Shown piece after piece: positions 9,006-34,908 of a stretch of 51,891 nt of DNA; positions within the stretch are counted from its first letter, which is position 1, and each line of letters opens with the position of its first letter. Made by a program: the position numbers and the translations under genes. Origin of the DNA: Polyangiaceae bacterium (GTDB taxonomy: Bacteria; Myxococcota_A; Polyangia; Polyangiales; Polyangiaceae); assembly GCA_035414525.1 (NCBI GenBank), contig DAONZA010000008.1, positions 1 to 51,891 on the forward strand. Reading direction: 5' to 3'. The notes under the pieces were generated by a model. It was not told where the DNA came from. It saw nothing but the letters and a program-made list of their open reading frames with translations, and ran no database searches.

Positions 9006-10559
9006 ATGCAGGTGACTCGATGTCCTTCGGTGGTTTGCATCGCTGCTGCGTTATCTCTCGCGCTTGTTTCGAGTCGTACGGATGCTTCGACGGGCTACGA
9101 ATTCCCCGAAAACGGAACCGAACAGCTTGGCCGTGCCGGCGCGTGGACCGCGCGCGCTTCCAACTCTCTCGCCACGTTTTTCAATCCCGCCGGCCTCGCC
9201 GGCCAGCCTTCCAGCCTGCTGCTCAATTCTTCCTTGATCTGGCAAAAAAATTGTCTGAAACGCACCTACCCCGACGGCAACCCCGTTCGTCTGGGAAATG
9301 GTGGCGCCTATCAATACCCCAGCGAAGTCTGCAACGACGATAGCGGTACCCCTTTCCCTAACCCGCAACTCGCGGGAGTCCTACGATTGTCCGACCGTCT
9401 TGGCTTGGGCCTCGCCGTCCTCGGCCCCTCGACCCGCGGCCAATTCACGTTCCCATCCCATGTCACGGGCTCTCGAGTCGGTGGAGTCGAACGAGAAGTC
9501 CCGAGCCCCCAACGCTATCTGCTGCAAAGCGACGAACTATTGTTCATATGGCCCCAAATCGGTATCGGTTGGGAACCCATCGATGATTTGCGCTTCGGTG
9601 CTTCGTTGATCTGGGGCATCGCTCGGCTGAAGTTCTCCATCCTCGCTGCCGGACGATCCGCCGGCGAAACCATTCAAAACTACCCATACCTCGCGGAACA
9701 ATACCTCGATTTCCAAGCCGATATCGATGTCAAAGACCTGTTCGTTCCGGGATTCACCGTCGGCACGTTATGGTCGCCCTCGCCAAACATTGACGTGGCT
9801 GCTTGGTACCACTGGATGGACGATATCCGCGCCAAAGGAGATATGGCTGTCGAAGGAAGTGTCTACGGAGACCCGCCCCATCAACGCCCAAGCTCACGAA
9901 ACTCCGTGCGTGCTCCCAAAGACAGCGTGCAGGTCGTTGCGCCATGGCCGATGCAGGCCCGAGTTGGTTTTCGATGGCACCAACCTAGAGACGGAATCCA
10001 TTCGAAAATGCGGGATCCCATCGCCAACGACGTTTGGGATATCGAACTCGATATGACGTGGGCCAACAACTCGCACTTCAAATATCTCGACGCCACCATG
10101 CCCGACGGCGTCTTTCTCGAAGTGCATAACCCCGCGGATCCCAATCCGAATTCCAGTGTCGCCTTCGCCATGCCGACCGATGCGCGCGTCCCACACCATT
10201 GGAAAGACTCCTTCGGTTTTCGTCTCGGCGGCGACTACGTCATGTTGCCCAATAGACTGGCCGCACGTGCCGGCGCCTTCTTCGATTCCGAAGCGCAAGA
10301 CCCCAAATACCTGAACGTCGATTACGTCCCCTCTCGCAAGTTCGGTCTGCATGTGGGGGGAACCGTCCGGTTTGGAGCCCTCGACCTGATGGTGGCTTAT
10401 GCGCACGTCTTTTATCAAGGCCTCGACAACCAAGGGGACGGCAAAACCCAAGGCCTGGCTGGCGCTGCCCCCACGTATCGCACAGACTATCCAGTCAATG
10501 GCGGTTCCAATCGTTCCGTCATCAATGCGCTATCGTTTGGAGCTTCTCACTCGTTCTGA
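9006..10559 (+). CDS. FadL/TodX/OmpP1-family outer-membrane channel for hydrophobic compounds
   Basis: Signal peptide MQVTRCPSVVCIAAALSLALVSSRTDAS. The family N-terminal signature reads GYEFPENGTEQLGRAGAWTARASNSLATFFNPAGLA. The protein ends with a C-terminal Phe (SFGASHSF), typical of beta-barrel OMPs. Confidence 0.8.
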   Translation: MQVTRCPSVVCIAAALSLALVSSRTDASTGYEFPENGTEQLGRAGAWTARASNSLATFFNPAGLAGQPSSLLLNSSLIWQKNCLKRTYPDGNPVRLGNGGAYQYPSEVCNDDSGTPFPNPQLAGVLRLSDRLGLGLAVLGPSTRGQFTFPSHVTGSRVGGVEREVPSPQRYLLQSDELLFIWPQIGIGWEPIDDLRFGASLIWGIARLKFSILAAGRSAGETIQNYPYLAEQYLDFQADIDVKDLFVPGFTVGTLWSPSPNIDVAAWYHWMDDIRAKGDMAVEGSVYGDPPHQRPSSRNSVRAPKDSVQVVAPWPMQARVGFRWHQPRDGIHSKMRDPIANDVWDIELDMTWANNSHFKYLDATMPDGVFLEVHNPADPNPNSSVAFAMPTDARVPHHWKDSFGFRLGGDYVMLPNRLAARAGAFFDSEAQDPKYLNVDYVPSRKFGLHVGGTVRFGALDLMVAYAHVFYQGLDNQGDGKTQGLAGAAPTYRTDYPVNGGSNRSVINALSFGASHSF

Positions 10560-11849: not shown

Positions 11850-13535
11850 ATGACCGAGGCGCCATCGCCACTTTCTTTGGCTCACCCGAACACGGACTAC
11901 GATGTCGTTGTGATTGGAGGTGGTGTCAATGGCACGGGAGTGCTCAGAGATTGCGCGATCCGAGGGTTGTCCGCGTGTTTGTTCGAGCGAAATGACCTGG
12001 CCTTCGGCGCTAGCGGCAACTCCAGTGGCATGATCCACGGTGGGGTTCGCTACCTCACTTCCAGTCCGAAGGTCACCCGATTGTCATGCCTAGATTCCGG
12101 CTATATTCAACGAATCGCCCCCCACTTGCTCTTTCGTATCCCGTTTATCATGCCGATCCATCGCAGCATCGGCTCTCGGATTTTTCTCCAACTCGTGGAT
12201 GCCTTCTTCGGCGCCTATGACAGCTTTCAACCGCTCAAACGAGGACGCCCCCATACGCGCCTCACACCAGAGCAAGCCAGAATTCTCGAGCCAGGCCTGT
12301 CCGGCGACATCGTTGGTGCCGTCACCTTCGATGAATGGGGAATCGACGGCGCACGACTATGCACCGCCAATGCCGTCGATGCTCACCAACGCGGAGCCCA
12401 CGTTCGCACGCATACCACGGTCGAAGGGCTTGAACTGCTTTCCTCTTCCCCAGCCCGCATGGCCGTTCGCTGGCGGGATCGAATCACCAATCAATCAGGC
12501 TCCGTATCGACGCGCGTCGTCGTCAACGCTTCCGGCGCTTGGGCCCCCCTGACCGCATCCCTCGCGGATATGCCGCCCTCCGTCGCGGCCGTTCGTCCAG
12601 GAAAAGGCATCCATGTCGTTTTCGACCGACGCCTTTCCAACTACGCCGTGGTGGCTCAGGCCATCGACAATCGGCAGATCTTTCTCGAACCTTGGCAAAA
12701 TGTCAGCATTTTGGGCACTACCGACACCGACTACTACGGCGATCTCGATCAGGTGACCGCCACCAGTGATGAGGTCCGCTATCTCATCGAGGCGATTCGC
12801 CGCGTATTCCCGTCCATCCAAAACGCACGAGCCATTCACACCTTCGCGGGTGTGCGACCCACCTTGTACGCTTATGGACCCATTCCTGACAAATTGTCCC
12901 GTGAACACGAGATCATCGATCACGCCAGCCATGGCAAAGACGGCATCTACTCGATGATCGGTGGAAAGCTTGCAAGCTACCGGATCTTCGCACAACAGAT
13001 GACCGACATCGTAGCCGCTCGCCTCGATTGTCATCAGCCCTCCCAAACACATCTTCTGCCTTTGCCAGGCGGCGATGAATCCCTCGATGCCGGGGAACTC
13101 GCCAAGATCTGCGGAATCGACCCGGTGGCAGCGCGACGACTCATCTACCGGCATGGAAGTCGCGCGCGTCTCATTGCAGAACAAATCGTCGAGTCAAAAC
13201 GTACGCCTCGCTTCATCTGCTCTTGCGAAGCCATCACGGAAGAAGAAATCCGATTCGTCGTTCGACATGAATTCGTTCGATGCTTCGAGGATTTGTCTCG
13301 ACGTACTCGTTTGGGGCTTGGACCATGCGCGGGGCTGCATTGCGTCCTTCGTGCGGGTGCCATCGTGGCGGATGAACTGGGGTGGACGCCATCGCAGGGG
13401 CGCTCGCAGGCCCTTCGCCTTTTGCTTTCGTCTTCGTTTACGCGCGCGGTCGCTCTGGGAAGCGCTCAGGCACGGCAAGAAGCATTGTTGAGAGCCGCGA
13501 TTCGAGCACAAGTCGGATGGGGACAAGAACCGTGA
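11850..13535 (+). CDS. glpA: Anaerobic-type sn-glycerol-3-phosphate dehydrogenase subunit A (FAD-dependent, with a C-terminal BFD-like [2Fe-2S] domain)
   Basis: The FAD dinucleotide-binding motif is YDVVVIGGGVNGTGVLRDCAIRGL ... GMIHGGVRY. The C-terminal BFD-like Cys cluster is CSCEAITEEEIRFVVRHEF ... GLGPCAGLHC. An AAAGGG RBS sits before the ATG. Confidence 0.85.
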   Translation: MTEAPSPLSLAHPNTDYDVVVIGGGVNGTGVLRDCAIRGLSACLFERNDLAFGASGNSSGMIHGGVRYLTSSPKVTRLSCLDSGYIQRIAPHLLFRIPFIMPIHRSIGSRIFLQLVDAFFGAYDSFQPLKRGRPHTRLTPEQARILEPGLSGDIVGAVTFDEWGIDGARLCTANAVDAHQRGAHVRTHTTVEGLELLSSSPARMAVRWRDRITNQSGSVSTRVVVNASGAWAPLTASLADMPPSVAAVRPGKGIHVVFDRRLSNYAVVAQAIDNRQIFLEPWQNVSILGTTDTDYYGDLDQVTATSDEVRYLIEAIRRVFPSIQNARAIHTFAGVRPTLYAYGPIPDKLSREHEIIDHASHGKDGIYSMIGGKLASYRIFAQQMTDIVAARLDCHQPSQTHLLPLPGGDESLDAGELAKICGIDPVAARRLIYRHGSRARLIAEQIVESKRTPRFICSCEAITEEEIRFVVRHEFVRCFEDLSRRTRLGLGPCAGLHCVLRAGAIVADELGWTPSQGRSQALRLLLSSSFTRAVALGSAQARQEALLRAAIRAQVGWGQEP

Positions 13536-14779
13536 ATCATCACGAAGATGTGATCATCCTTGGCGATGGCGCGGCGGGAGTTGCCGCGGCTCATGCATCG
13601 CTTCGCCTGGGGGTGCGGCCGCTGCTCATTTCCCTCGGAAATGGCGCCACTACGCTGTATTCCGGTTGTTTGGACCATGGCGTCTGGAACCTGCATCCCA
13701 GGAGTTCATCGCTGGACGAACGACAAAAAGAATTCATCGACGCCATCGATATATGGTGTGTTGATCCCGAAAAAACACGAGTTGCCACTCTCGCCGGAGT
13801 CGTTCGAACCGCCGATGCCGCGGACCGCGCCCTGCTCAATCTGGCCTCTCACAAAAACGAAACGATTCTTGTGCCTCGTATCGATAGACCGAATTGGGAT
13901 GCTGATTTCCTCGCCCGATCATGGTCGGAAGATCTCTGGTGCCGTGAGCAAGGTCTTCGTTTCGAAAGCTTCGATGCCTCGTCACTCGACGACGATCGAA
14001 TGCGTTTTGGTTCCGATACGGAAATCGCCTTTCACCTTGATAGTCCGGAGGGTCGTACGAAATTCGGTGAGCATCTGAGCGCGGAGGTCCAGCGGCATGG
14101 AGGCGGAAAATCTGTATTGCTGGGACCGTGGTTGGGCATCGATACGCCCGTTGCTTCGATCCTGACTAACCATATAGGGATACAAATCGGAGAAGCTTGC
14201 GCGGGGCTTGGAAGTACCGCCGGAGCCCGGTGGGAGCATGCCGCGAATCGGTGGCTGACCCAACAACGGATCACGCGGATCCAAGATCGCGTGCAGCGGC
14301 TCGAGCAGGTCGATGGCGATTGGAATGTGCATGTTTCCCAGTCGAAGCGCCCGTACCAGGCCAAGGCTGTCGTGGTCGCGACGGGCGGTATCGCGGGAGG
14401 TGGAATCATCCTCACTTCTGGTGAGCCCCAGGAGGGCAACGAGCAGTCGTTTTCACCAGCCCATCCATTTTCCCTTTCGTATCGCGGGCCCTTGGTCCTT
14501 ACGGTCGATGGTCGAATCTCCGAAACGGTCGCATCCCTTCATGGGTTCAATCTCGAACGACTCGCCTGGCCGCGCGACGACCACGGCGTTTGGTGGATGG
14601 ATAGGATCAATGTGCTCCGCGATGGCGTCCAGGTCCTCGATGCCTCGAATAATCCACTCGCGGGCCTTTTTGTCGCAGGCGAATTGGCGCTGAAACGACC
14701 CGCGGCCTCATTGGCCTCCATCGCCACGGGAGTCGAAGCTGGCACGGCAGCCGCGCGATACGTATTGACCAATGCCTGA
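13532..14779 (+). CDS. glpB: Anaerobic glycerol-3-phosphate dehydrogenase subunit B-like FAD flavoprotein
   Basis: The GTG start at 13532 overlaps the glpA stop (GTGA). The N-terminus VNHHEDVIILGDGAAGVAAAHASLRLG carries a GxGxxG motif. The protein is about 415 aa, consistent with GlpB. No glpC homologue follows. Confidence 0.65.
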   Translation: MNHHEDVIILGDGAAGVAAAHASLRLGVRPLLISLGNGATTLYSGCLDHGVWNLHPRSSSLDERQKEFIDAIDIWCVDPEKTRVATLAGVVRTADAADRALLNLASHKNETILVPRIDRPNWDADFLARSWSEDLWCREQGLRFESFDASSLDDDRMRFGSDTEIAFHLDSPEGRTKFGEHLSAEVQRHGGGKSVLLGPWLGIDTPVASILTNHIGIQIGEACAGLGSTAGARWEHAANRWLTQQRITRIQDRVQRLEQVDGDWNVHVSQSKRPYQAKAVVVATGGIAGGGIILTSGEPQEGNEQSFSPAHPFSLSYRGPLVLTVDGRISETVASLHGFNLERLAWPRDDHGVWWMDRINVLRDGVQVLDASNNPLAGLFVAGELALKRPAASLASIATGVEAGTAAARYVLTNA

Positions 14780-24808: not shown

Positions 24809-25489
24809 ATGCCAAGACGCCGTCGTTCGGAAAACGAGGTCGAAGCCGTGCGAAACCAGATCTTGGACGAGGCATTGAACTTGTTCGTGGAGGCAGGTTG
24901 GCAAGGTTTTTCCATGCGCAAACTCGGCGCTCGCCTGGGCATCGCCGCGAAAACGGTCTACAACTACTTCGCCTCCCAAGACGAATTGTACCTCGGTCTG
25001 CTCACCCGCGGCTTTCATAGCCTCGGTCAGGCTCTTGCCAAAGCGGCCGAACCCCATACCAACCCATTCGAACGGCTCGACGCGCTGATCGATGCCTACG
25101 TGACGTTTGCCTTCGACAATACACACCTATACGGGTTGATGTTCACCTGGCATGTGCCCAAGTATGACGACTACGTGGGCACGGCGATGGAGAACACGGC
25201 TCGGGTCGAACTCGAGACGGCGCTCGACAGTCTCCGCCTGACTGCCACTACCATCGCTGCCTGCACCGGCACGCCGCCAGCAAGGGATGACCTGTACTTC
25301 ATCACGGTTCGCCTGTGGACGCAGTTACATGGTTATATCGCAGGCATCCACAACCACCTCATCGACTACATGCATCCTGACCCGGCTTCTCTGAAAGAGC
25401 GCATGATCACACGGATCAAAAATAGCGTTGTCCATGAGATTCTCGCTCTGAACCCCACCGCTGCGCGTGAGCAGCCAACCCTGCAGTGA
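24809..25489 (+). CDS. TetR/AcrR-family transcriptional regulator
   Basis: The N-terminal HTH is RNQILDEALNLFVEAGWQGFSMRKLGARLGIAAKTVYNYFASQDELYLGL. It sits immediately upstream of the glycyl-radical operon, with a 15-nt gap. Confidence 0.85.
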   Translation: MPRRRRSENEVEAVRNQILDEALNLFVEAGWQGFSMRKLGARLGIAAKTVYNYFASQDELYLGLLTRGFHSLGQALAKAAEPHTNPFERLDALIDAYVTFAFDNTHLYGLMFTWHVPKYDDYVGTAMENTARVELETALDSLRLTATTIAACTGTPPARDDLYFITVRLWTQLHGYIAGIHNHLIDYMHPDPASLKERMITRIKNSVVHEILALNPTAAREQPTLQ

Positions 25490-25504: not shown

Positions 25505-26437
25505 ATGACGGCCATTCTGACGAAGCACGAACCGTTGCTGCTCGAGGTGAAAGGCAACGCGCTTGACGACGGTCCGGGCATTCGCTCGGTGGTTTTTTTC
25601 AAGGGCTGTAAGCTGTCGTGCCGATGGTGTCATAACCCGGAAAGTTTGAGTCAAAACGCTGAGTTGTCATTTAATGTTGCGGATTGTATTTCCGGCTGTA
25701 CCCGATGTCGTGGCCACTGCCCCGAGGACGCCATCATGCCTGGTGTCGGCATCAATCGTTGGGCCTGCACCAGATGCTTCGACTGCGTACCGGTCTGTCC
25801 ATCGGGGGCTTTGCGCCAGGTGGGTAAGCCAGCCAACGTCGCCGAGTTGATGGCCAAGCTTCGCGCGGATAAGCCCTTTTATGAAGCCTCCGGAGGCGGC
25901 GTCACCTTTTCCGGGGGAGAGCCGACTCTAGCGATGGAGCTGCTTGGGGAACTTGCCGCGGCCTGTCGTGCCGAAGGTATACACACCCTTTTAGAGACTG
26001 CCGGATACTTTCGGTGGGAGCCGTTCGAACGAGGGGTGCTGCCGCATCTGAACGCCATCTATTATGACCTGAAACTCATGGATTCCGAGGACCACCGTGC
26101 GTATTGCGGGGTGCCGAACGAGCGGATCCTGGCCAATTTCAAGCGGTTGGTGGAGCTATCCCGTGCCGGGACGTTCGATCTGCAGCCGCGCATTCCGCTG
26201 GTCCCGGATATCACCGCGACGGAAGAAAACCTGACGGCGATCGGCCGATTTCTGCTCGATGTGGGGGTTCGTCAAGTCCGGTTGCTGGATTACAATCCAA
26301 CCTGGGTAGACAAGGGTCCTCAATTGGGAATTGCTAACAAATTCACTGAGTTAGATATTATGCGGACATGGCTGCCCCGCGGCCTGGCAGCCCGACTGCG
26401 CCAACATCTCGTTGATCTCGGCCTGGAGGCGATATGA
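25505..26437 (+). CDS. Glycyl-radical enzyme activating enzyme. It is a radical SAM enzyme with two auxiliary ferredoxin-like clusters, the TIGR02494-type seen with GRE eliminases
   Basis: The radical-SAM motif is CKLSCRWCHNPE (CxxxCxxC). There are two ferredoxin-like Cys clusters, CTRCRGHCPEDAI and CTRCFDCVPVCPSGAL, and a GGE motif (FSGGEPTL). The stop overlaps the GRE start (ATGA). Confidence 0.9.
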   Translation: MTAILTKHEPLLLEVKGNALDDGPGIRSVVFFKGCKLSCRWCHNPESLSQNAELSFNVADCISGCTRCRGHCPEDAIMPGVGINRWACTRCFDCVPVCPSGALRQVGKPANVAELMAKLRADKPFYEASGGGVTFSGGEPTLAMELLGELAAACRAEGIHTLLETAGYFRWEPFERGVLPHLNAIYYDLKLMDSEDHRAYCGVPNERILANFKRLVELSRAGTFDLQPRIPLVPDITATEENLTAIGRFLLDVGVRQVRLLDYNPTWVDKGPQLGIANKFTELDIMRTWLPRGLAARLRQHLVDLGLEAI

Positions 26438-29400
26438 CGTTCCCCAACACCTCTTCGTCCACTTCTTCCGGAACCGAGCATGCCATGACCATGGCCGAAC
26501 CGACCGCTGTGAAGCTGCCCCCGGTGGACCCGCTGGACATGCGCCCATTTCATCCGGACCCGGCGGTGAGCGATGCGGCGCGCCACAGTCCGCAACAATT
26601 GATCGTGCGTGGGCTGCTCGGTCTCATGGCCAAGCTCTACACCTGGCACCCCAGGTTGCGTGACGAATTGCGTATCAAGGACGGTTGGATCGATCTTGTG
26701 GTCGGCATTCGCACCCGCTCTGGCTCCGTGCGCACCGGAATCCGGTTTCGAGATGGCAAAGCAAAGGCGATGGGCCGCATTCCCGAGGCCGTCGATGTCG
26801 TGCTGGTATTCAAATCCGACGCTGAAGTTACGAAATTCCTCACGGCCACGCCAACCGAGCAGGTCCTCATGACGTTGCGCAACGACTTTTACGTCGATGG
26901 CAATACATCATCGCTAAACCTGTTCGTATATCTGATTTCCCGACTCCTTTTCCGCCAGCAAATCAAGAATCTGGCGAAAGATCTTCGTAACGATAACGCT
27001 GATCGTCGCACACAAGCCGGTGCCACGAATCCTGATCTGGCCCGGCAGATGCGCGAGCGTGCGGACTACCGCATTGCGACTTCGCAAGTCGATCCGGGTG
27101 TGAAATATCTCGAGGACCCCTACTTGCGTGATTTCAGTTTGAAGGATTTCCCGCGGCTAGCTAAGTTTTTGAACCGGCACCTCGACCATGACGCCGAGGT
27201 ATGCCCAGAATTGCCGAAACTATTGACCGAATGGCATCGAAAACACGGTTTCGAGCGAGATTCGAAGGGCAAGCCCTGGCACCCGGTGCTGCGCAAAGCC
27301 CTGGCCTATCAATATGTGATGGAGAATCGTCGGCCGATCATCCATGCCAACGACCTCATTGCCGGCACGACAACTACCAAGGAAACCGGTGTGGTTGTCT
27401 ATCCGGAGGGGCATGGGACGATGATCTGGGGCGAGCTGCTGACGGTGCCGCATCGACCTCTGAATCCTTACGGTGTCTCGGAGGAGACCCGAGAATTGCT
27501 GCATAAGGATGTATTCCCCTATTGGAGCCGTCGCAACTTCAAGGAATGGGTGCGAGACCACTACCGTTCGCCTTTGGGCCAGCGTATCGACGACCGATTT
27601 GCGGTCTATTTCGACTGGAAAACCGCAACCATCTCACACACGATCCCGGATTTCCCCAAGATGTTGCGGCTGGGAACGTCCGGCATCATCGCCGAGATCG
27701 AGGAAGCGATGGCTGCCGACTCGGATGAGGAGCGTAATACCACCCGGCGGGCATTCATTCTCGCGCTGGAGGGGTTGGGCACCTATTCTCGGCATTTGGC
27801 GGCGCAAGCGGCGTATGAGGCGGAGCGGGAAAGCGACCCCAGTCGGGCGGCTGAGTTGCGCCGACTGGCCGAGATCTGTAGCCAGGTGGTCGTGGGGCCA
27901 GCCCGCACGCTCGATGAGGCGGTGAATTCGGTGTGGATCACGTGGGTGGGGCTGCATATGGAAAGCACCAATGCCGGGCTGTCGATGGGCCGGTTGGACC
28001 AGTGGCTGCAGCCATATTTCGAGGCCGATATGGGCAAGTTGGAGACTTTGGAGCAGCGGCGGGCCTACACCAAACGTGCGATTGAACTGGTGGGTGACTT
28101 GATGCTGCGCTGCACGGACCACTTGCCGCTGACTCCCGACGTGGCCAACTACTACTTTGGTGGCAGTTCCTCGGATCAAGCGATCACGCTGGGCGGGGTG
28201 ACCCCCGAAGGCGAAGACGCGGTCTGCGATATGACGTATATATTCTTGAAAGTCACTGAAATCCTTAGTCTTCGCGACCCAAATGTGAACGCTAGATTCC
28301 ATCTGGGCAAAAACAGCCAAGCGTACCTGAAGCGTCTTTGCGAGGTCAATCTGATCACGGCGGCGACTCCGTCGTTGCATAACGACGAGGTCGTGGGGAA
28401 GGCCTTGAGCCGCTATGGCTATGAGGTACGTGACGTGCGTGATTGGGCGGCGACCGGGTGTGTGGAGCCGACGCTGTCGGGAAAGCATATCGGCCATACC
28501 AATTTCCAGATGCTCAGTCTGGTGGCGGCGCTGGAGATGGCGTTGAACGACGGCTGGCATCCGCTGATGGATTGGAAGGTGGGACCATCTACCGGTTCGA
28601 TCGAGGCTGGCGATTTTGCGAATTTCGACCAGTTTTTCGAGGCTTACCGGCAGCAGGTGGCTTTTCTGGTCGACCGATCGATCGAGTACAACGAGATGTT
28701 GGGTAAGGCGCATCAGCAGCTTCGTCCGACGCCACTGCTGTCCAGCCTGATCGAGGGCACCATTGCATCGGGAAAGGATGTTACGTATGGGGGAGCCAGG
28801 TACAACAGTTCTGGGGCTGCGTGCATCGGGCTGGTTGACGTCATCGATTCGATGTTGGTGATCCAGAAGCTCGTATTCGAGCAACGAGTTGTGTCATTCG
28901 CTGACCTCAAGCGGGCAGTGGACACGAATTTCGCCAACGATCCGCTGTTATTGGCGCAGGTATCCCACAAAGTAGCGCTTTTTGGCTCGGGCAACGAAGA
29001 CGCCGTGGCGATGGGCAACCGCATTACCAAGATGGTGCAGTCGCTGTATGATCGGTATACCAACTACCGGGGAGGCCGTTATGCGGCTGGGTTCTGGTCG
29101 ATGTCTACGCATGTATCTTACGGCACGCTGGCTGGAGCTTTGCCGTCGGGGCGGTTGGCGGGCAAGCCATTTACGCCAGGTCTGACTCCCACACCGGGGG
29201 CATCGCCGAACCTATTGGACAATATCCGTGATGTGGCCAGGTTGGATCCGGCCAATATGCCGAACAATATTGCCTTCAATGTGAAGGTGGTGCCATCGGC
29301 CCATGAGTCGCGGGAGCGGACGGTCGACACGATGGCCGCGTACGTGAAGTCCTATTTTTCGCTGGGGGGCATGCAAATGCAGCTCAACGCAGTCACGTCC

Positions 29401-29541
29401 GATACCCTTCGCGACGCGATGGTTCATCCGGAGAACTATCGCAATTTGCTCGTGTGGATTTCCGGGTATAATGCCTATTTCGTCACGCTGAACAAGCAGA
29501 TGCAGCTCGAGCTGATCGAGCGCGCTGAGTACGGTATCTAG
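26434..29541 (+). CDS. Glycyl radical enzyme, eliminase-like (Cys-x-Glu active-site loop). It is unusually long (1035 aa), with an N-terminal extension of about 240 aa that contains an SCP2-like domain
   Basis: The catalytic thiyl loop is WAATGCVEPTLSG, with the Cys codon at 28459-61. The C-terminal glycyl-radical motif reads LLVWISGYNAYFVTLNKQMQLELIERAEY, with the Gly codon at 29464-66. This aligns with the canonical RVxGYSAxFxxL motif but has W in place of R. The N-terminal residues of about 50-170 (WIDLVVGIRTRSGSVRTGIRF...AVDVVLVFKSDAEVTKFLTATPTEQVLMTLRNDFYVDGNTSSLNLFVYLISRL) resemble an SCP2 sterol-carrier fold. Confidence 0.9.
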   Translation: MTFPNTSSSTSSGTEHAMTMAEPTAVKLPPVDPLDMRPFHPDPAVSDAARHSPQQLIVRGLLGLMAKLYTWHPRLRDELRIKDGWIDLVVGIRTRSGSVRTGIRFRDGKAKAMGRIPEAVDVVLVFKSDAEVTKFLTATPTEQVLMTLRNDFYVDGNTSSLNLFVYLISRLLFRQQIKNLAKDLRNDNADRRTQAGATNPDLARQMRERADYRIATSQVDPGVKYLEDPYLRDFSLKDFPRLAKFLNRHLDHDAEVCPELPKLLTEWHRKHGFERDSKGKPWHPVLRKALAYQYVMENRRPIIHANDLIAGTTTTKETGVVVYPEGHGTMIWGELLTVPHRPLNPYGVSEETRELLHKDVFPYWSRRNFKEWVRDHYRSPLGQRIDDRFAVYFDWKTATISHTIPDFPKMLRLGTSGIIAEIEEAMAADSDEERNTTRRAFILALEGLGTYSRHLAAQAAYEAERESDPSRAAELRRLAEICSQVVVGPARTLDEAVNSVWITWVGLHMESTNAGLSMGRLDQWLQPYFEADMGKLETLEQRRAYTKRAIELVGDLMLRCTDHLPLTPDVANYYFGGSSSDQAITLGGVTPEGEDAVCDMTYIFLKVTEILSLRDPNVNARFHLGKNSQAYLKRLCEVNLITAATPSLHNDEVVGKALSRYGYEVRDVRDWAATGCVEPTLSGKHIGHTNFQMLSLVAALEMALNDGWHPLMDWKVGPSTGSIEAGDFANFDQFFEAYRQQVAFLVDRSIEYNEMLGKAHQQLRPTPLLSSLIEGTIASGKDVTYGGARYNSSGAACIGLVDVIDSMLVIQKLVFEQRVVSFADLKRAVDTNFANDPLLLAQVSHKVALFGSGNEDAVAMGNRITKMVQSLYDRYTNYRGGRYAAGFWSMSTHVSYGTLAGALPSGRLAGKPFTPGLTPTPGASPNLLDNIRDVARLDPANMPNNIAFNVKVVPSAHESRERTVDTMAAYVKSYFSLGGMQMQLNAVTSDTLRDAMVHPENYRNLLVWISGYNAYFVTLNKQMQLELIERAEYGI

Positions 29542-29898: not shown

Positions 29899-31392
29899 TT
29901 ACGGCGCCAGATCCATCTCGCCGACGTAGCTATGCACCGATCCGTTCGACTCATCGAGTCCGGAGAAAAACACCACCCATCGATTTGGTTCGTACGTAAG
30001 TGGCGAGGTGTAGGGCTTAACCGGCGTATATCCCACGTAGCGAATATCACCGTTGGATGGCAATCCCGTGATGGGAACCGAATGCCATGTCCAGCTATCG
30101 CCCCGGTCCATGCTCACGCCAAGGGATATAGTCGCGCCGGGGCCGGCGTCGAGCAGGTATAGCGCTCCATGGCTAGCGAATTTGAGCTTGGCGTAGTTGC
30201 TTACGCATCCCACTGGCACGATCGTGGGCGGCTGCGCGAGCTCGCTGTCGAAGCGAAGGAGTTCCGTGCATTGTTTTTCACTTTTCGGTAAATAGGAGAG
30301 CGCGTACAACGTGCCCTGCGCGTCGTGTTCGAGGTCCGAGGGATAGGCGCTGACTATGCCTGGAACGGGTTGCGCTGGCGCACGACGGAATAATTGGCTC
30401 AGCGACGACGTATTTCCAACGTAGGCGGTGGAAGCGAGGTAGCTTGCGTTATTGCCCCCCGCGGGGTCGAACTCCCCGGCGTAAAGGATGAGTTGTGAAG
30501 AACCGAGGGACGGGTGTCCGGTCAAGATTGGATAAAGCAGGTATGCGGGGGCGGCTGTCAACGTGCCGATGGTGCCGTATTGCGCACCGCTGTACCACCA
30601 CTGTACCACACGTCCCCAGGCAGAGTCGGCCAGTGCCCATACTGTCACCCCGTCGGTGGTGGTTGCGATTCCCTGGTAGCCGTTGGACTCCGCGGTCCAT
30701 TCGTCATGGTTGCTGTAGGTATCGAAACGGAGCGCGCCGCTGCCATCCCGCGTGGAGAAGATCAGGTGGTAGAATCGCGAGTTTCTTCCCGTCGTCCCCG
30801 CTCCTCCTGGAAAACAGAGCACATCTTGCGTGGCGGGGCGCATACAATCGAAGATGAGGTGCAGCCGCTGCGATATGTCCATCACGATCCCAGGGGACTG
30901 ATGCGGATAAGCGATACGCGCAACTTCCACCCAAGCATGGAGGGCGCTTCCGGCCTCGCGTCTCATGATTGCCGCATAACGATCCGCTACGGAGGGGGGA
31001 TAATGGGTATGGACCGCATACCAGAATGCGCCGTCGCCCACGATTTTCGGCAGGTGGGCATTCCATGTGGCAGGTGTCGTCTGGGGGGAAGGTCCGGTGT
31101 GGATCAGCCCCACCCGCAATTCGGCCGGGATGAACGGCTCGATGGCGCTTTCCTCCCCGGCATCCTTAGACGAGTCGATCGATGAATCCCCGCCGATTTC
31201 ATCGGAAGCATCGACTGGGGTGGGCTCTTCGGGCGAACCATCCCATGGAATATAGGAATCAGAAACATCATCCGGGTCGATGCTGGCGTCGAGCACAGGA
31301 TTGGTCGCTCCGGCGGAAACGTGGCTCTCGCGGTCCGCGGCGCAAGCGGGTGGGACAATGACGAGCGCCGCGAGGCAAAGCGCGCGTTTCAT
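29899..31392 (-). CDS. Secreted protein with a BNR/Asp-box, probably a beta-propeller (sialidase/glycosidase-like fold); function unknown
   Basis: Signal peptide MKRALCLAALVIVPPACAA. The Asp-box is SMDRGDSWTWH (S-x-D-x-G-x-[ST]-W). An acidic low-complexity N-terminal region follows the signal. Confidence 0.55.
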   Translation of the reverse strand: MKRALCLAALVIVPPACAADRESHVSAGATNPVLDASIDPDDVSDSYIPWDGSPEEPTPVDASDEIGGDSSIDSSKDAGEESAIEPFIPAELRVGLIHTGPSPQTTPATWNAHLPKIVGDGAFWYAVHTHYPPSVADRYAAIMRREAGSALHAWVEVARIAYPHQSPGIVMDISQRLHLIFDCMRPATQDVLCFPGGAGTTGRNSRFYHLIFSTRDGSGALRFDTYSNHDEWTAESNGYQGIATTTDGVTVWALADSAWGRVVQWWYSGAQYGTIGTLTAAPAYLLYPILTGHPSLGSSQLILYAGEFDPAGGNNASYLASTAYVGNTSSLSQLFRRAPAQPVPGIVSAYPSDLEHDAQGTLYALSYLPKSEKQCTELLRFDSELAQPPTIVPVGCVSNYAKLKFASHGALYLLDAGPGATISLGVSMDRGDSWTWHSVPITGLPSNGDIRYVGYTPVKPYTSPLTYEPNRWVVFFSGLDESNGSVHSYVGEMDLAP

Positions 31393-32008: not shown

Positions 32009-33583
32009 ATGTCCACTTCTCTGGATCGCAGGGACTTATTGCAAGTCATGGGCTACGGTGCGGCTACCGTATCGCTGCCTTTCGTGGCGGGTTGTGGTCG
32101 CACGGAAATCCAGCGTTTGACTTCCAAGTCACCGAGTTTGCAGGAACCGGGCAAGGATTCGGGAGCGGTGAGCGTGAGTCATTTTGATGCTTTCGGTGTC
32201 GATGAGGGATTGATACGCAAGGTATTATCCCGGGCGTTGTCGCGGGGGGCTTCTTTTTCGGAAATATTTTTGCAGCACAGGGTATCGCATTGGGTGGGTA
32301 TGGAAGATGGCGAGGTCAATAGGGCCTATTCCGAGGTGGGTCTTGGCGCGGGCATTCGCGTGATTCAAGGGGATACGACCGGATTTTCATTTACGGAGGA
32401 CCTGACGCCCGGGGCCTTGCTCGAAGCCGCGGACATGGCTTCCGCGGTGGCCGATGGCCCTTCCAGCCCGCGTTCGATAACCCTCACGCCTCGTATCGTC
32501 GTGTCTCGCTACACCGTGGAAACGCCGTGGACCGAAGTCGGCATCGACCGCAAGCTTCCGATCGTTCAGCGGGCGGAAAAAGCGGCGCGAAATCATGATA
32601 CGCGAATCATCAAGGTGACGGTGGCTCTTCAAGATGAGACCTCCCACATCCTGATCGCCAATTCCGAGGGGCTGCTGGTCGCCGACGAGCGGCCCATGGG
32701 CGTCCTTTCCGTGTCCTGTGTAGGAGAAAACAAGGGAAAAACTGAGACGGGGTACTGGACCTTCGCCCAGCGCGATGGGATTCGTTTTCTCACGCCAGCT
32801 CATATCGACGACACGGGAACCACGGCAGCGCGCAATACGGTGTTGCTTTTTGAAGCCGTGTCTCCGCCGGTGGGAGACATGCCGGTCGTCCTTGGGCCAG
32901 GAAATCCAGGACTGCTCTTGCACGAGGCCATTGGGCACGGGATGGAAGCGGATTTCAATCGCAAGGGGATTTCGATTTATGCGAACCGGATTGGAAAAAG
33001 AATCGCTCCGGAGGGTGTGACCATCGTGGATGGGGGCACTGGACGACAGCGTGGTTCGCTCAACATCGACGATGAAGGGCATCCCACCGAGGAGACGGTA
33101 TTGGTGGAAAACGGCGTATTACGCACCTATTTGCACGACCGTATTTCAGCGCAGCACTTCAAGGCGCCCCGTACAGGCTCGGGACGTCGTGAATCCTATT
33201 GTTATCCACCGGTGCCGCGAATGCGCAACACTTATATGCTTGCGGGGAAAGAAAGCCCGGAGGAGATCATCGCTTCCGTCAAAAAGGGGATTTACGCCGA
33301 GATCTTCACCAACGGACAGGTGATGATTGGTGCCGGGGATTTTACCTTCTATTTGAAACACGGAAGGCTCATCGAAGATGGGAAACTGACCCATGTGATC
33401 AAGGATGCGAACCTCATCGGCAATGGCCCAAACGTTCTCGAGAAGGTGGCGATGATCGGCAACGATTTGAAGCATATCACCGGGGCTGGCTATTGTGGCA
33501 AGGATGGGCAGGGCGTTCCGGTGGGTTTTGGATTACCGACCTTAAAAGTGAGTGGTATTTCCGTGGGTGGGAGGGGAGCATGA
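32009..33583 (+). CDS. tldD: TldD-family metallopeptidase carrying a twin-arginine (Tat) signal peptide with a lipobox
   Basis: The N-terminus is MSTSLDRRDLLQVMGYGAATVSLPFVAGCG. It contains the Tat motif S-L-D-R-R-D-L-L-Q and then the lipobox VAGC. The metal-binding HExxxH motif is HEAIGHGMEADF. An AAATGAGG RBS lies upstream. Confidence 0.9.
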   Translation: MSTSLDRRDLLQVMGYGAATVSLPFVAGCGRTEIQRLTSKSPSLQEPGKDSGAVSVSHFDAFGVDEGLIRKVLSRALSRGASFSEIFLQHRVSHWVGMEDGEVNRAYSEVGLGAGIRVIQGDTTGFSFTEDLTPGALLEAADMASAVADGPSSPRSITLTPRIVVSRYTVETPWTEVGIDRKLPIVQRAEKAARNHDTRIIKVTVALQDETSHILIANSEGLLVADERPMGVLSVSCVGENKGKTETGYWTFAQRDGIRFLTPAHIDDTGTTAARNTVLLFEAVSPPVGDMPVVLGPGNPGLLLHEAIGHGMEADFNRKGISIYANRIGKRIAPEGVTIVDGGTGRQRGSLNIDDEGHPTEETVLVENGVLRTYLHDRISAQHFKAPRTGSGRRESYCYPPVPRMRNTYMLAGKESPEEIIASVKKGIYAEIFTNGQVMIGAGDFTFYLKHGRLIEDGKLTHVIKDANLIGNGPNVLEKVAMIGNDLKHITGAGYCGKDGQGVPVGFGLPTLKVSGISVGGRGA

Positions 33584-34908
33584 ACGCGACGCTTATGCAA
33601 CTTGTTGAAAATGCGCTTATTTTGGCGAAACGGCAGGGCGCAGCGGCGGCGCGGGCAAGCGTATGGCGCATGCGGGAAAGTGGTGTGGAGTGGCGCGATG
33701 GGAAGCTCGACCGCTTGCGTGAGTCTGTCCACAAGGGCCTTTCCATCTCCTTATTTGTCGATGGGCGTTATTCTTCCCACACGACAAGCGATTTGCGTCC
33801 GGAAGCCATGGAGCTTTTCGTGGCCGAGTCGGTGGCGATGACCAAGGTGCTTCAGCCGGATCCCCATCGCAAGCTTCCCCCTTTGGAGCGCTGCCAAGAG
33901 AGGTTTGAGGGCGATCTTCTGCTGTTGGACAGGGACAATCTTGGTGTCATCGACGGTGCGGCGCAAAAAAAGCAGGCGATGGAGCTGGAACGAGCGATGC
34001 GGCAGGCCGAGGGCGCGGATCTCATCCTTTCGGCTACGGGAGCGATGCGTGTCTACCACACGATGAGCGCGATGAGGGATAGTCAGGGCACGAAAGGCGA
34101 GCGGGAATCTTCGGTTTTCGCTCGCTCGGCTTCCGCTACGGTTCGAGGCGAAGGGGATCGAAAACCTTCCGGGGGAGACTACGCTGCTACTCATCATTAT
34201 GCCGAACTTCCTTCGATGGACCTCATGGGCAAAGAAGCGGTGCGAAGGGCGTTGGCGGGGATTGGAGAAACCCCTTGGAAGAGTGGTAAGTATCCTTGTA
34301 TCATTGAGAACCGGGTGGCGGATCGTTTGCTCGGGGGGCTATTGGGGCCGTTGGGGGGCAACTCCTTGCAGCAAAAACGCTCGTATATGTCGGGTAAACT
34401 CGGAGAAAAGGTGGGGTCGATCCTCCTTCACATCGACGATGACCCTCTGCTGCCAAAGGGGGCGGCTTCTCGAACGTATGATTACGAAGGGATGAGCACC
34501 CGACGTCGTCCGATTTTCGAAAAAGGAGTTTTGCGAACGTATTTGTTGGATACCTATTACGCTTCCAAATTGGGGTGGGAGCCGACGGTCGGGGAGACGA
34601 GCAATCTAGTATTTCCCAAAGGAAAACAAGATCTTGCGGGATTGTTGCGCACGATGGGAAGAGGAATCCTCGTCACGGGGTTTTCCGGGGGCAATTCCAA
34701 TGCAGCGACGGGTGATTTTTCGATTGGCATCCGGGGGCATTGGGTGGAGTCCGGGCGTATCGTCAAACCCGTGGCCGAAATGAATCTTGCGGGCAACCAC
34801 CTCACGTTCTGGCAAGCCTTGGCGGAGCTTGGTTCGGATCCATACCCGTATCGTGGGGCACGGACCCCTTCGATGCGGTTCCATGAAGTGCAGTTTTCCG
34901 GGGTGTGA
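33580..34908 (+). CDS. pmbA: PmbA/TldE-family protein, the partner of TldD; it has no signal peptide
   Basis: The ATG at 33580 overlaps the tldD stop (ATGA). TldE-like sequence is seen throughout, for example GFSGGNSNAATGDFSIGIRGHWVESG. It lacks the HExxxH motif, as expected for TldE. Confidence 0.85.
   Translation: MNATLMQLVENALILAKRQGAAAARASVWRMRESGVEWRDGKLDRLRESVHKGLSISLFVDGRYSSHTTSDLRPEAMELFVAESVAMTKVLQPDPHRKLPPLERCQERFEGDLLLLDRDNLGVIDGAAQKKQAMELERAMRQAEGADLILSATGAMRVYHTMSAMRDSQGTKGERESSVFARSASATVRGEGDRKPSGGDYAATHHYAELPSMDLMGKEAVRRALAGIGETPWKSGKYPCIIENRVADRLLGGLLGPLGGNSLQQKRSYMSGKLGEKVGSILLHIDDDPLLPKGAASRTYDYEGMSTRRRPIFEKGVLRTYLLDTYYASKLGWEPTVGETSNLVFPKGKQDLAGLLRTMGRGILVTGFSGGNSNAATGDFSIGIRGHWVESGRIVKPVAEMNLAGNHLTFWQALAELGSDPYPYRGARTPSMRFHEVQFSGV

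Follow-up and report, generated by a model that had tools for sequence, protein, structure and literature searches.

Here we describe a glycyl radical enzyme (GRE) from a Polyangiaceae bacterium whose N-terminus carries a domain that, judging from homologous sequences and a predicted structure, has the SCP2 (sterol carrier) fold. The enzyme is encoded on the forward strand of contig DAONZA010000008.1 (assembly GCA_035414525.1), and this entire contig, 51,891 bp in length, is the window analyzed here. Comparisons at both levels indicate that the protein is a GRE of the eliminase type with a new accessory module of lipid-carrier fold. To our knowledge, the substrates of all GRE eliminases and isomerases characterised so far are small and soluble in water, and the accessory subunits described for GREs are small proteins that bind iron.

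No description of a GRE with an SCP2 domain was found in open-access full text combining glycyl radical with SCP2, sterol carrier or ether lipid, and the June 2026 review of the GRE superfamily mentions no such domain or subunit. Both agree with the original prediction, made from the letters of this DNA alone, which was aware of no described GRE family with an N-terminal SCP2 domain.

Evidence for an SCP2 Fold in the N-Terminal Extension

The first ~215 residues of the protein have no counterpart in solved GREs, whose alignments begin at about residue 276, and searches of Pfam, NCBIfam and the PDB by sequence or profile assigned nothing to the first ~240 residues. Neither the window protein nor six homologous N-domains gave a direct match to PF02036 (SCP2) or PF14864 (Alkyl_sulf_C) at E values up to 10, so that the Pfam match to one of these families which had been looked to in residues 1-250 is absent. 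Because direct Pfam scans never reach SCP2, database records show only PF02901 and PF01228, and Pfam-based annotation overlooks the SCP2 domain of these GREs entirely.

Three other, independent lines, namely intermediate sequences, structure prediction and fold comparison, agree on the SCP2 fold. A profile of the conserved N-domain, compared by HMMER with 1.84 billion representatives, found 176 proteins; among 32 weaker matches, 15 hit Pfam SCP2 and five hit Alkyl_sulf_C, and two stand-alone proteins, P0260 and P0265, exceed the Pfam SCP2 gathering threshold. When the alignment of GRE N-domains was compared with SCP2-positive proteins by hhalign, the probability was 99.2% (E 1.3e-19, 113 columns). 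The aligned blocks are β1 (GW.D...SGSV), β4 with helix D (VDVVLVF.SD...FL), and β5 with the C-terminal helix (F.VDGN...LNLF). They coincide with the blocks named in the original prediction, which had placed the domain at about residues 50-170; this range was right and the correspondence of blocks stands, whereas the exact spacings of the proposed motif were off by one to three residues, the real pattern being W85-x-D87-x9-G97-S-V.

An AlphaFold2 model of residues 40-215, built with 124 homologues, reached a mean pLDDT of 85.6 and a pTM of 0.71. Its elements follow the order α, α, β1-β4, α, α, β5, α, and then two linker helices; within the SCP2 domain, helices are predicted at residues 53-71, 73-77, 129-137, 140-148 and 158-171, and strands at 88-94, 100-106, 109-113, 122-126 and 152-156. 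In a Foldseek search of the PDB, the top 45 matches are all of the SCP2 fold, the best being UbiJ-SCP2 (E 5.9e-7, TM 0.71), and among the others stand out AF1534, the yeast, insect and human SCP2 proteins, the SCP2L domain of MFE-2, and the C-terminal domains of alkylsulfatases. An earlier model from seven sequences, with a pLDDT of 56, gave an identical Foldseek ranking. The predicted domain has the α/β order and the five-stranded sheet of SCP2 proteins and can be superimposed on the solved ones. The reference modules for this comparison are UbiJ-SCP2 (6H6P), AF1534 (3BN8), SCP2 and MFE-2 SCP2L (1C44, 1IKT), and the C-terminal domains of the alkylsulfatases SdsA1, Pisa1 and YjcS; the GRE N-domain differs from them by its own L-T-A-T-P-T-E-Q motif in the helix D/E region, and by its partner, a glycyl radical enzyme, a pairing so far unreported.

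It could be argued that the likeness to SCP2 is due to chance, and that the extension is an unrelated α/β domain or the normal dimerisation helices of a GRE. The absence of a direct match in the Pfam, NCBIfam and PDB sequence searches would favour such an explanation, as would an identity of only 8-18% to SCP2 structures. However, the helices of the GRE dimer interface begin only past residue ~216, so that the known dimerisation region, named beforehand as an alternative that would speak against an SCP2 domain, is not borne out. Given the agreement of the intermediate sequences, the model and the Foldseek matches, a chance similarity is effectively refuted, and we give it practically no weight.

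The genes of the cassette and the parts of the fusion protein are as follows, all on the forward strand (+):

24809..25489, +: TetR-family regulator (TetR_N and TetR_C_33 in Pfam), which opens the cassette
25505..26437, +: GRE activating enzyme (activase), a radical SAM protein (NCBIfam TIGR02494, 247 bits against a cutoff of 174)
26434..29541, +: SCP2-GRE fusion protein, 1035 aa from the start of the longest open reading frame (ORF), defined by ORF and Pfam
26586 and upstream to 26434 (26434..26586), +: N-terminal tail, residues 1-51, variable and probably disordered (unconserved in the family alignment; pLDDT below 50 in both models)
26587..26949, +: SCP2-fold domain, residues ~52-172 (predicted structure)
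26950..27078, +: helical linker of low conservation, residues 173-215 (predicted helices 173-194 and 200-213; pLDDT 69-85)
27079..29124, +: GRE catalytic barrel (PFL-like), including conserved N-terminal helices from residue ~216 (Pfam PF02901, E 4.9e-154)
27637..27639, +: His402, equivalent to His164 of glycerol dehydratase (alignment to 1R8W)
28456..28467, +: Cys loop G675-C676-V677-E678 (CxE motif), which bears the Cys of the thiyl radical and the Glu acting as general base (alignment)
29170..29484, +: glycyl radical domain (Pfam PF01228, E 2.1e-20)
29452..29469, +: Gly loop V1007-W1008-I-S-G1011-Y1012, with Gly1011 as radical site (alignment)

The PFL-like match covers residues 249-897 and the Gly_radical match residues 913-1017. 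The stop codon of the activase overlaps the longest-ORF start of the GRE (ATGA). This start is ambiguous: besides 26434, translation could begin at M18 (26485) or M20 (26491). M18 corresponds to the first residue of the homologue P0001, and M20 to that of P0007, the NCBI entry of a sibling; residues 1-45 are unconserved in the family alignment. The whole GRE sequence is identical to the public entry HPY16417.1, from a Polyangiaceae metagenome-assembled genome (MAG).

A Large and Widely Distributed Family

A full-length search retrieved at least 420 proteins at E <1e-50. The best 120 full-length matches, of 823-1045 aa (most of them ~1000) and 60-84% identical to the window GRE, constitute together with the query the family set of 121 sequences used throughout. 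The N-domain is present in 117 of them, the other four being truncated, and the median identity to the query is 41% in the N-domain versus 69% in the core; by this measure the SCP2 domain evolves faster than the GRE core. In distant members, 40-53% identical over the full length, the architecture is unchanged. The N-terminal extension defines a large family and is not peculiar to the window gene. An initial impression of a rare domain came from a word-indexed search with the N-terminus only, which gave six relatives, and was overturned by the full-length search.

At least 556 GTDB species-representative genomes, one genome per species having been scanned, encode a relative. The hosts, mostly anaerobes, include Desulfobacterales, Smithella/Syntrophales, Spirochaetota, Leptospirales, anaerobic Actinomycetota, Chloroflexota, Myxococcota, SAR324 and Acidobacteriota, with Desulfatibacillum alkenivorans DSM 16219 as a cultured host. 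Many of them (Smithella, Syntrophales, Desulfatibacillum, Leptospirales) are degraders of fatty acids or hydrocarbons.

Separate Genes and Alternative Fusions

Among stand-alone SCP2-like proteins, those nearest to the GRE N-domain are likewise encoded in GRE operons. At locus L087, P0265 sits between an 823-aa GRE and its activase, this split GRE being 37% identical to the window protein in an alignment that runs from residue 223 to the end; at L088, P0260 is followed directly by the activase. A metagenome scan with the alignment of stand-alone proteins yielded 35 loci; wherever flanking sequence is available, a GRE gene (~820-860 aa) is followed by an SCP2-like gene (145-190 aa) and then by the activase gene, all of them co-directional and tightly packed. 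A separate SCP2 gene between GRE and activase is found at L087, L088 and ~25 metagenome loci. Moreover, SCP2 is fused to the GRE's C-terminus at two loci (L118:1756-4827 and L123:4229-7318), and at a further one (L112:4216-6678) it forms the C-terminal part of a DUF362 protein whose gene comes immediately after that of the GRE. Since GRE and SCP2 occur together in four arrangements, there is strong evidence, of the Rosetta-stone kind, that they are functional partners; gene order and fusions, read from sequence, show the module to be a dedicated partner of this GRE clade.

The other neighbours in split-type operons, DUF6765, a RoxA-like cytochrome c and DUF362, offer no clear functional clue; a DUF362 gene also follows the activase at L087 and L104. 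Some candidates for further arrangements were rejected. The small proteins P0004-P0006 (~175 aa) were discounted as separate subunits because at L002 the GRE is broken into ~7 pieces by assembly frameshifts and P0005 is one of these fragments; P0004 and P0006 are probably similar GRE fragments. Fragments such as P0005 inflate the counts of small SCP2-like proteins. A 1014-aa GRE at L122, considered as an N-terminal fusion, turned out to be a spurious ORF extension.

The separate SCP2 proteins recall the β, γ and δ subunits of benzylsuccinate synthase (BSS) and MASS and the γ subunit of HPAD in being small proteins encoded in a GRE operon, and they may gate the substrate channel like BSS-β. In contrast, the BSS, MASS and HPAD small subunits are Fe-S or rubredoxin-like and never fused, whereas the SCP2 module is often fused and has no conserved Cys cluster.

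Catalytic Domain and Reaction Class

From its similarity scores and motifs, the catalytic domain falls in the CxE eliminase/isomerase clade and not among the X-succinate synthases. It scores 372 bits with PFL2 of A. fulgidus, 353 with glycerol dehydratase (GDH), 352 with propanediol dehydratase (PD), ~330-340 with CutC and 313 with PflD, versus 182 with MasD and 154 with TutD. No NCBIfam equivalog cutoff is reached for CutC, HypD, HpsG, HpfG, PflD, IAD, HPAD or PFL, the best being CutC with 363 against 1050, and the subfamily model TIGR01774 gives 495 bits against a cutoff of 678.

In the alignment, Cys676 and Glu678 correspond to Cys433 and Glu435 of GDH. The sequence G-C676-V-E678-P is invariant in the 121 family members, as expected of GRE eliminases and isomerases, all of which keep the CxE motif (2026 GRE review); His402, the equivalent of His164, is invariant in all 121 as well. 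The catalytic Cys676, invariant in the family, and the adjacent activase, above the TIGR02494 cutoff, are as expected of a GRE. According to the same source, the Glu takes the proton of the substrate hydroxyl and His164 supplies one to the leaving group in GDH, and PflD and YbiW break an ether C-O bond by identical chemistry (2026 GRE review).

The diol pocket, on the other hand, is replaced. Relative to GDH, the family carries H281A, S282G, Y339D, D447N and Y640W, and the corresponding window residues, A514, G515, D581, N690 and W888, are essentially invariant: nine of the 11 mapped positions are identical in 121/121, while 120 sequences have Asn at N690 and 112 have Asp at D581. As the His is kept and the remaining pocket residues are changed, the protein does not group with the GRE diol dehydratases of the GDH and PD type. 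The scores, the CxE motif and the replaced pocket therefore point to a distinct, uncharacterised clade of CxE type.

With the GRE eliminases (1R8W, 5I2A, CutC) and with PflD/YbiW, the window GRE shares the barrel, the glycyl radical domain, the CxE motif, the His164 equivalent and the adjacent activase, and likely also the chemistry of the eliminases and isomerases: hydrogen abstraction by a thiyl radical, a Glu-assisted ketyl radical, and β-elimination of O-, N- or S-groups. It differs by its module of ~215 residues, SCP2 domain and linker, which none of these enzymes has, by its pocket residues, and by a substrate that is presumably hydrophobic. The closest solved structure, PFL2 (2F3O), is likewise of CxE type and has Gln-Ala at H281/S282 of GDH, that is, smaller residues, as in the SCP2-GRE family. 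It is, however, an archaeal protein of 776 aa without an SCP2 domain, with Asp at D447 and Tyr at Y640 where the family has Asn and Trp, and its function is still debated (2026 GRE review).

The original prediction had drawn a parallel with the hydrocarbon-activating X-succinate synthases, to which SCP2 would deliver an alkane or alkyl chain. Members of the family do occur in the alkane and alkene degraders Smithella, Desulfatibacillum and Desulfosudis oleivorans, one database source uses the benzylsuccinate synthase name for a sibling, and the debate on PFL2 includes a possible alkylsuccinate synthase. Nevertheless, the MasD and TutD scores fall far below those of PFL2, GDH and PD, two features typical of eliminases, the CxE motif and the equivalent of His164, do not vary in the family, and the GRE itself matches no X-succinate synthase model of NCBIfam, such a match being limited to the activase family as a whole. 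Furthermore, no accessory subunits of fumarate addition came to light in relatives: neither small-subunit genes nor genes of a fumarate-addition pathway were seen in the gene lists of six related loci, and the operon neighbours, screened from 100 aa upwards, included no small-subunit genes either, ORFs below 100 aa not having been screened systematically. We thus regard an X-succinate synthase as very improbable.

The name in question belongs to P0276, a near-identical sibling from the Deltaproteobacteria bacterium ADurb.Bin207 MAG, recorded as 'Benzylsuccinate synthase alpha subunit'; the similarity scores and the CxE motif speak for a misannotation. A limonene 'glycine radical enzyme', considered as a relative, is a BSS-type protein and unrelated.

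Genomic Context

Neighbours were counted in 55 related loci in which the GRE is flanked by 3 kb or more of sequence on each side. The activase adjoins the GRE and is co-directional in 46 of them, a homologous TetR gene lies upstream in 31, and any short-chain dehydrogenase/reductase (SDR) within 5 kb in 18. TetR, activase and GRE make up the conserved cassette, and roughly one third of the loci also have an SDR. SDRs are the only recurrent families among 140 operon-like neighbours, ~12-16 being of the extended types Epimerase, 3beta-HSD or NAD_binding_4 ('male sterility') and 12 classical adh_short; no bacterial microcompartment genes were present among the neighbour families. A sulfatase, which follows the GRE at L001 and L002, was dropped as a general partner, being found at 2/55 loci only.

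In D. alkenivorans, the operon TetR-activase-GRE-SDR is followed by genes for phospholipase A1 and acyl-CoA synthetase. The closest solved relative of the TetR regulator is FasR of M. tuberculosis, a sensor of long-chain acyl-CoA, the match being weak (E 2.8e-9).

A gene for an outer-membrane channel of the FadL/TodX family (9006..10559, +; Pfam Toluene_X, E 4.7e-12) had been brought forward as a sign of a hydrophobic substrate. The gene is real, but it lies 16 kb from the GRE and is not among the recurrent neighbour families, so that this link does not hold; a glycosyltransferase, GlpD-like dehydrogenases, a Ser/Thr kinase and polA stand between it and the cassette. At the Leptospiraceae locus L004, a Toluene_X gene occurs ~10 kb from the GRE, probably by coincidence.

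Upstream of the cassette in the window lies polA, and downstream of it an opposite-strand gene without annotation. The latter, directly after the GRE (29899-31392, -), is an ORF of 497 aa that matches no Pfam family and whose N-terminus is hydrophobic and could be a signal peptide. Farther on, two successive overlapping ORFs (32009-34908, +), each with three PmbA/TldD metallopeptidase domains, form a TldD/PmbA pair. At 11850-14779 (+), a GlpD-like FAD dehydrogenase (DAO, DAO_C and a BFD-like [2Fe-2S] domain) precedes a second FAD/NAD-binding protein, and the gene pair resembles an anaerobic glycerol-3-phosphate dehydrogenase module.

Changes at the Radical Site

The family radical motif, R-I-S-G-Y...L...Q..L..R, differs from the fingerprint RVxG[FWY]x6-8[FL]x4Qx2[IV]x2R by conservative changes of V to I and of I/V to L, and both GRE Pfam domains are strong. 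The window copy reads W-I-S-G-Y: W1008 (TGG, 29455-29457) replaces an otherwise invariant Arg, three residues before the radical Gly. Arg occupies this position in 120/121 family members and in all 10 other members of the 90% cluster, one Arg-bearing member of which was seen on 33 contigs, and R1008W is the sole difference of the window GRE from P0007 and P0276. W1008 is either an error of sequencing or an allele that is rare and probably deleterious.

Two other proteins of ~1000 aa, P0172 and P0228, keep the SCP2-GRE architecture but lack the catalytic Cys and Glu, GCVEP being changed to GAAAP or GDGGP, and the His164 equivalent is lost as well; P0172 also has Ala at the position of the radical Gly. 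These relatives are probably either pseudoenzyme paralogues or enzymes that rely on an unusual radical residue.

A Proposed Mechanism and Its Alternatives

We lean, with slightly better than even confidence, towards a model in which the hydroxylated head group of an amphipathic substrate undergoes a radical 1,2-elimination in the GRE core, its apolar tail being held meanwhile by the SCP2 domain. The SCP2 module would bind the hydrophobic tail of a poorly soluble amphipath (a lipid-like alcohol, diol or ether) and offer the head group to the buried active site. The GRE would be activated by the adjacent radical-SAM activase, and the radical at Gly1011 would pass to Cys676 as a thiyl radical, which would abstract a hydrogen from the carbinol carbon; deprotonation of the hydroxyl by Glu678 would then give a ketyl radical. 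The β-leaving group (OH, OR or similar) would depart with the assistance of His402 or, alternatively, an ether-cleaving isomerisation would take place. The carbonyl product could be taken over by the NAD(P)-dependent SDR where one is co-encoded, and the probable signal for TetR would be the lipid-like substrate or an acyl-CoA formed from it.

The SDR partners, the phospholipase A1 and acyl-CoA synthetase genes of D. alkenivorans, the FasR-like TetR and the lifestyles of the hosts would all be in line with a lipid substrate. The hydrophobic substrate of the original prediction is a reasonable proposal, backed by the Rosetta-stone link between GRE and SCP2; it stands together with the SCP2 fusion and the absence of a previous description, whereas the FadL link and the X-succinate synthase parallel are abandoned.

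Several points weigh against a substrate-carrying SCP2 module and a simple elimination. The genomic context is thin, with no conserved catabolic partner beyond the SDRs and a weak FasR similarity. The equivalent of Asp447, which we take to lie with His164 around the leaving hydroxyl, is Asn, so that a simple diol-dehydratase mechanism is not assured. R1008W may impair activation, in which case the window copy could be inactive. SCP2-fold domains are not always lipid binders; some of them, such as the C-terminal domain of Eis, which is among the matches, are generally known as domains without a demonstrated lipid role. Furthermore, split-type GREs have a different active-site pocket and the same SCP2 partner; therefore, a substrate-independent role fits equally well. 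Finally, the accessory subunits described for GREs so far are ascribed structural or regulatory roles (2026 GRE review).

These last observations also speak for a structural or regulatory accessory without a substrate-carrying role, gating like the small subunits of BSS or HPAD; we take this as the chief alternative and see it as possible, if on balance unlikely. The separate SCP2 gene lies between GRE and activase, the typical place of accessory-subunit genes, and the known small subunits cover hydrophobic patches and regulate both glycyl radical domain motion and access to the channel (2026 GRE review). Against such a role, the N-terminal, C-terminal, separate and DUF362-fused positions suit a tethered carrier better than a precisely docked subunit, and the SCP2 domain evolves faster than the core. 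In addition, it is general knowledge that the top-matching SCP2, MFE-2 SCP2L, UbiJ and alkylsulfatase C-terminal domains bind hydrophobic ligands. Another explanation, which we find distinctly improbable, is a variant of the biochemistry of the main model: without oxygen, the enzyme would remodel endogenous membrane lipids instead of breaking down an external substrate, and a glycerol or polyol head group might, for instance, be dehydrated or rearranged by radical chemistry. UbiJ, the top structural match, serves the biosynthesis of membrane-embedded intermediates, the cassette often stands alone without catabolic genes, and SDRs of the extended epimerase/3beta-HSD type are frequent partners. 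However, TetR-repressed cassettes are generally known to be inducible catabolic or detoxification units, the patchy distribution across phyla suggests an accessory trait, and the context in D. alkenivorans looks catabolic.

Significance

A phylogenetically broad clade, present in at least 556 species-representative genomes, has been annotated only as 'pyruvate formate lyase family', and once wrongly as benzylsuccinate synthase. Whole GRE clades are still unassigned (June 2026 superfamily review), and the finding provides a testable hypothesis for this sequence space, namely that hydrophobic or amphipathic substrates undergo radical chemistry in anoxic habitats, with Desulfatibacillum alkenivorans DSM 16219 as a cultured entry point.

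A more specific proposal, which we put forward as speculative and rather doubtful, is that the SCP2-GREs act anaerobically on lipid head groups as radical lyases or dehydratases. An alkylglycerol-type ether bond, for instance, could be cleaved to fatty alcohol and hydroxyacetone by a β-alkoxy elimination like that of PflD/YbiW, or long-chain vicinal diols could be dehydrated to aldehydes. If this were true, these proteins would be the first GREs acting on lipids, the SCP2 module would represent a new class of GRE substrate-delivery subunit, and sediments and digesters would harbor an O2-independent route for the degradation of ether and diol lipids.

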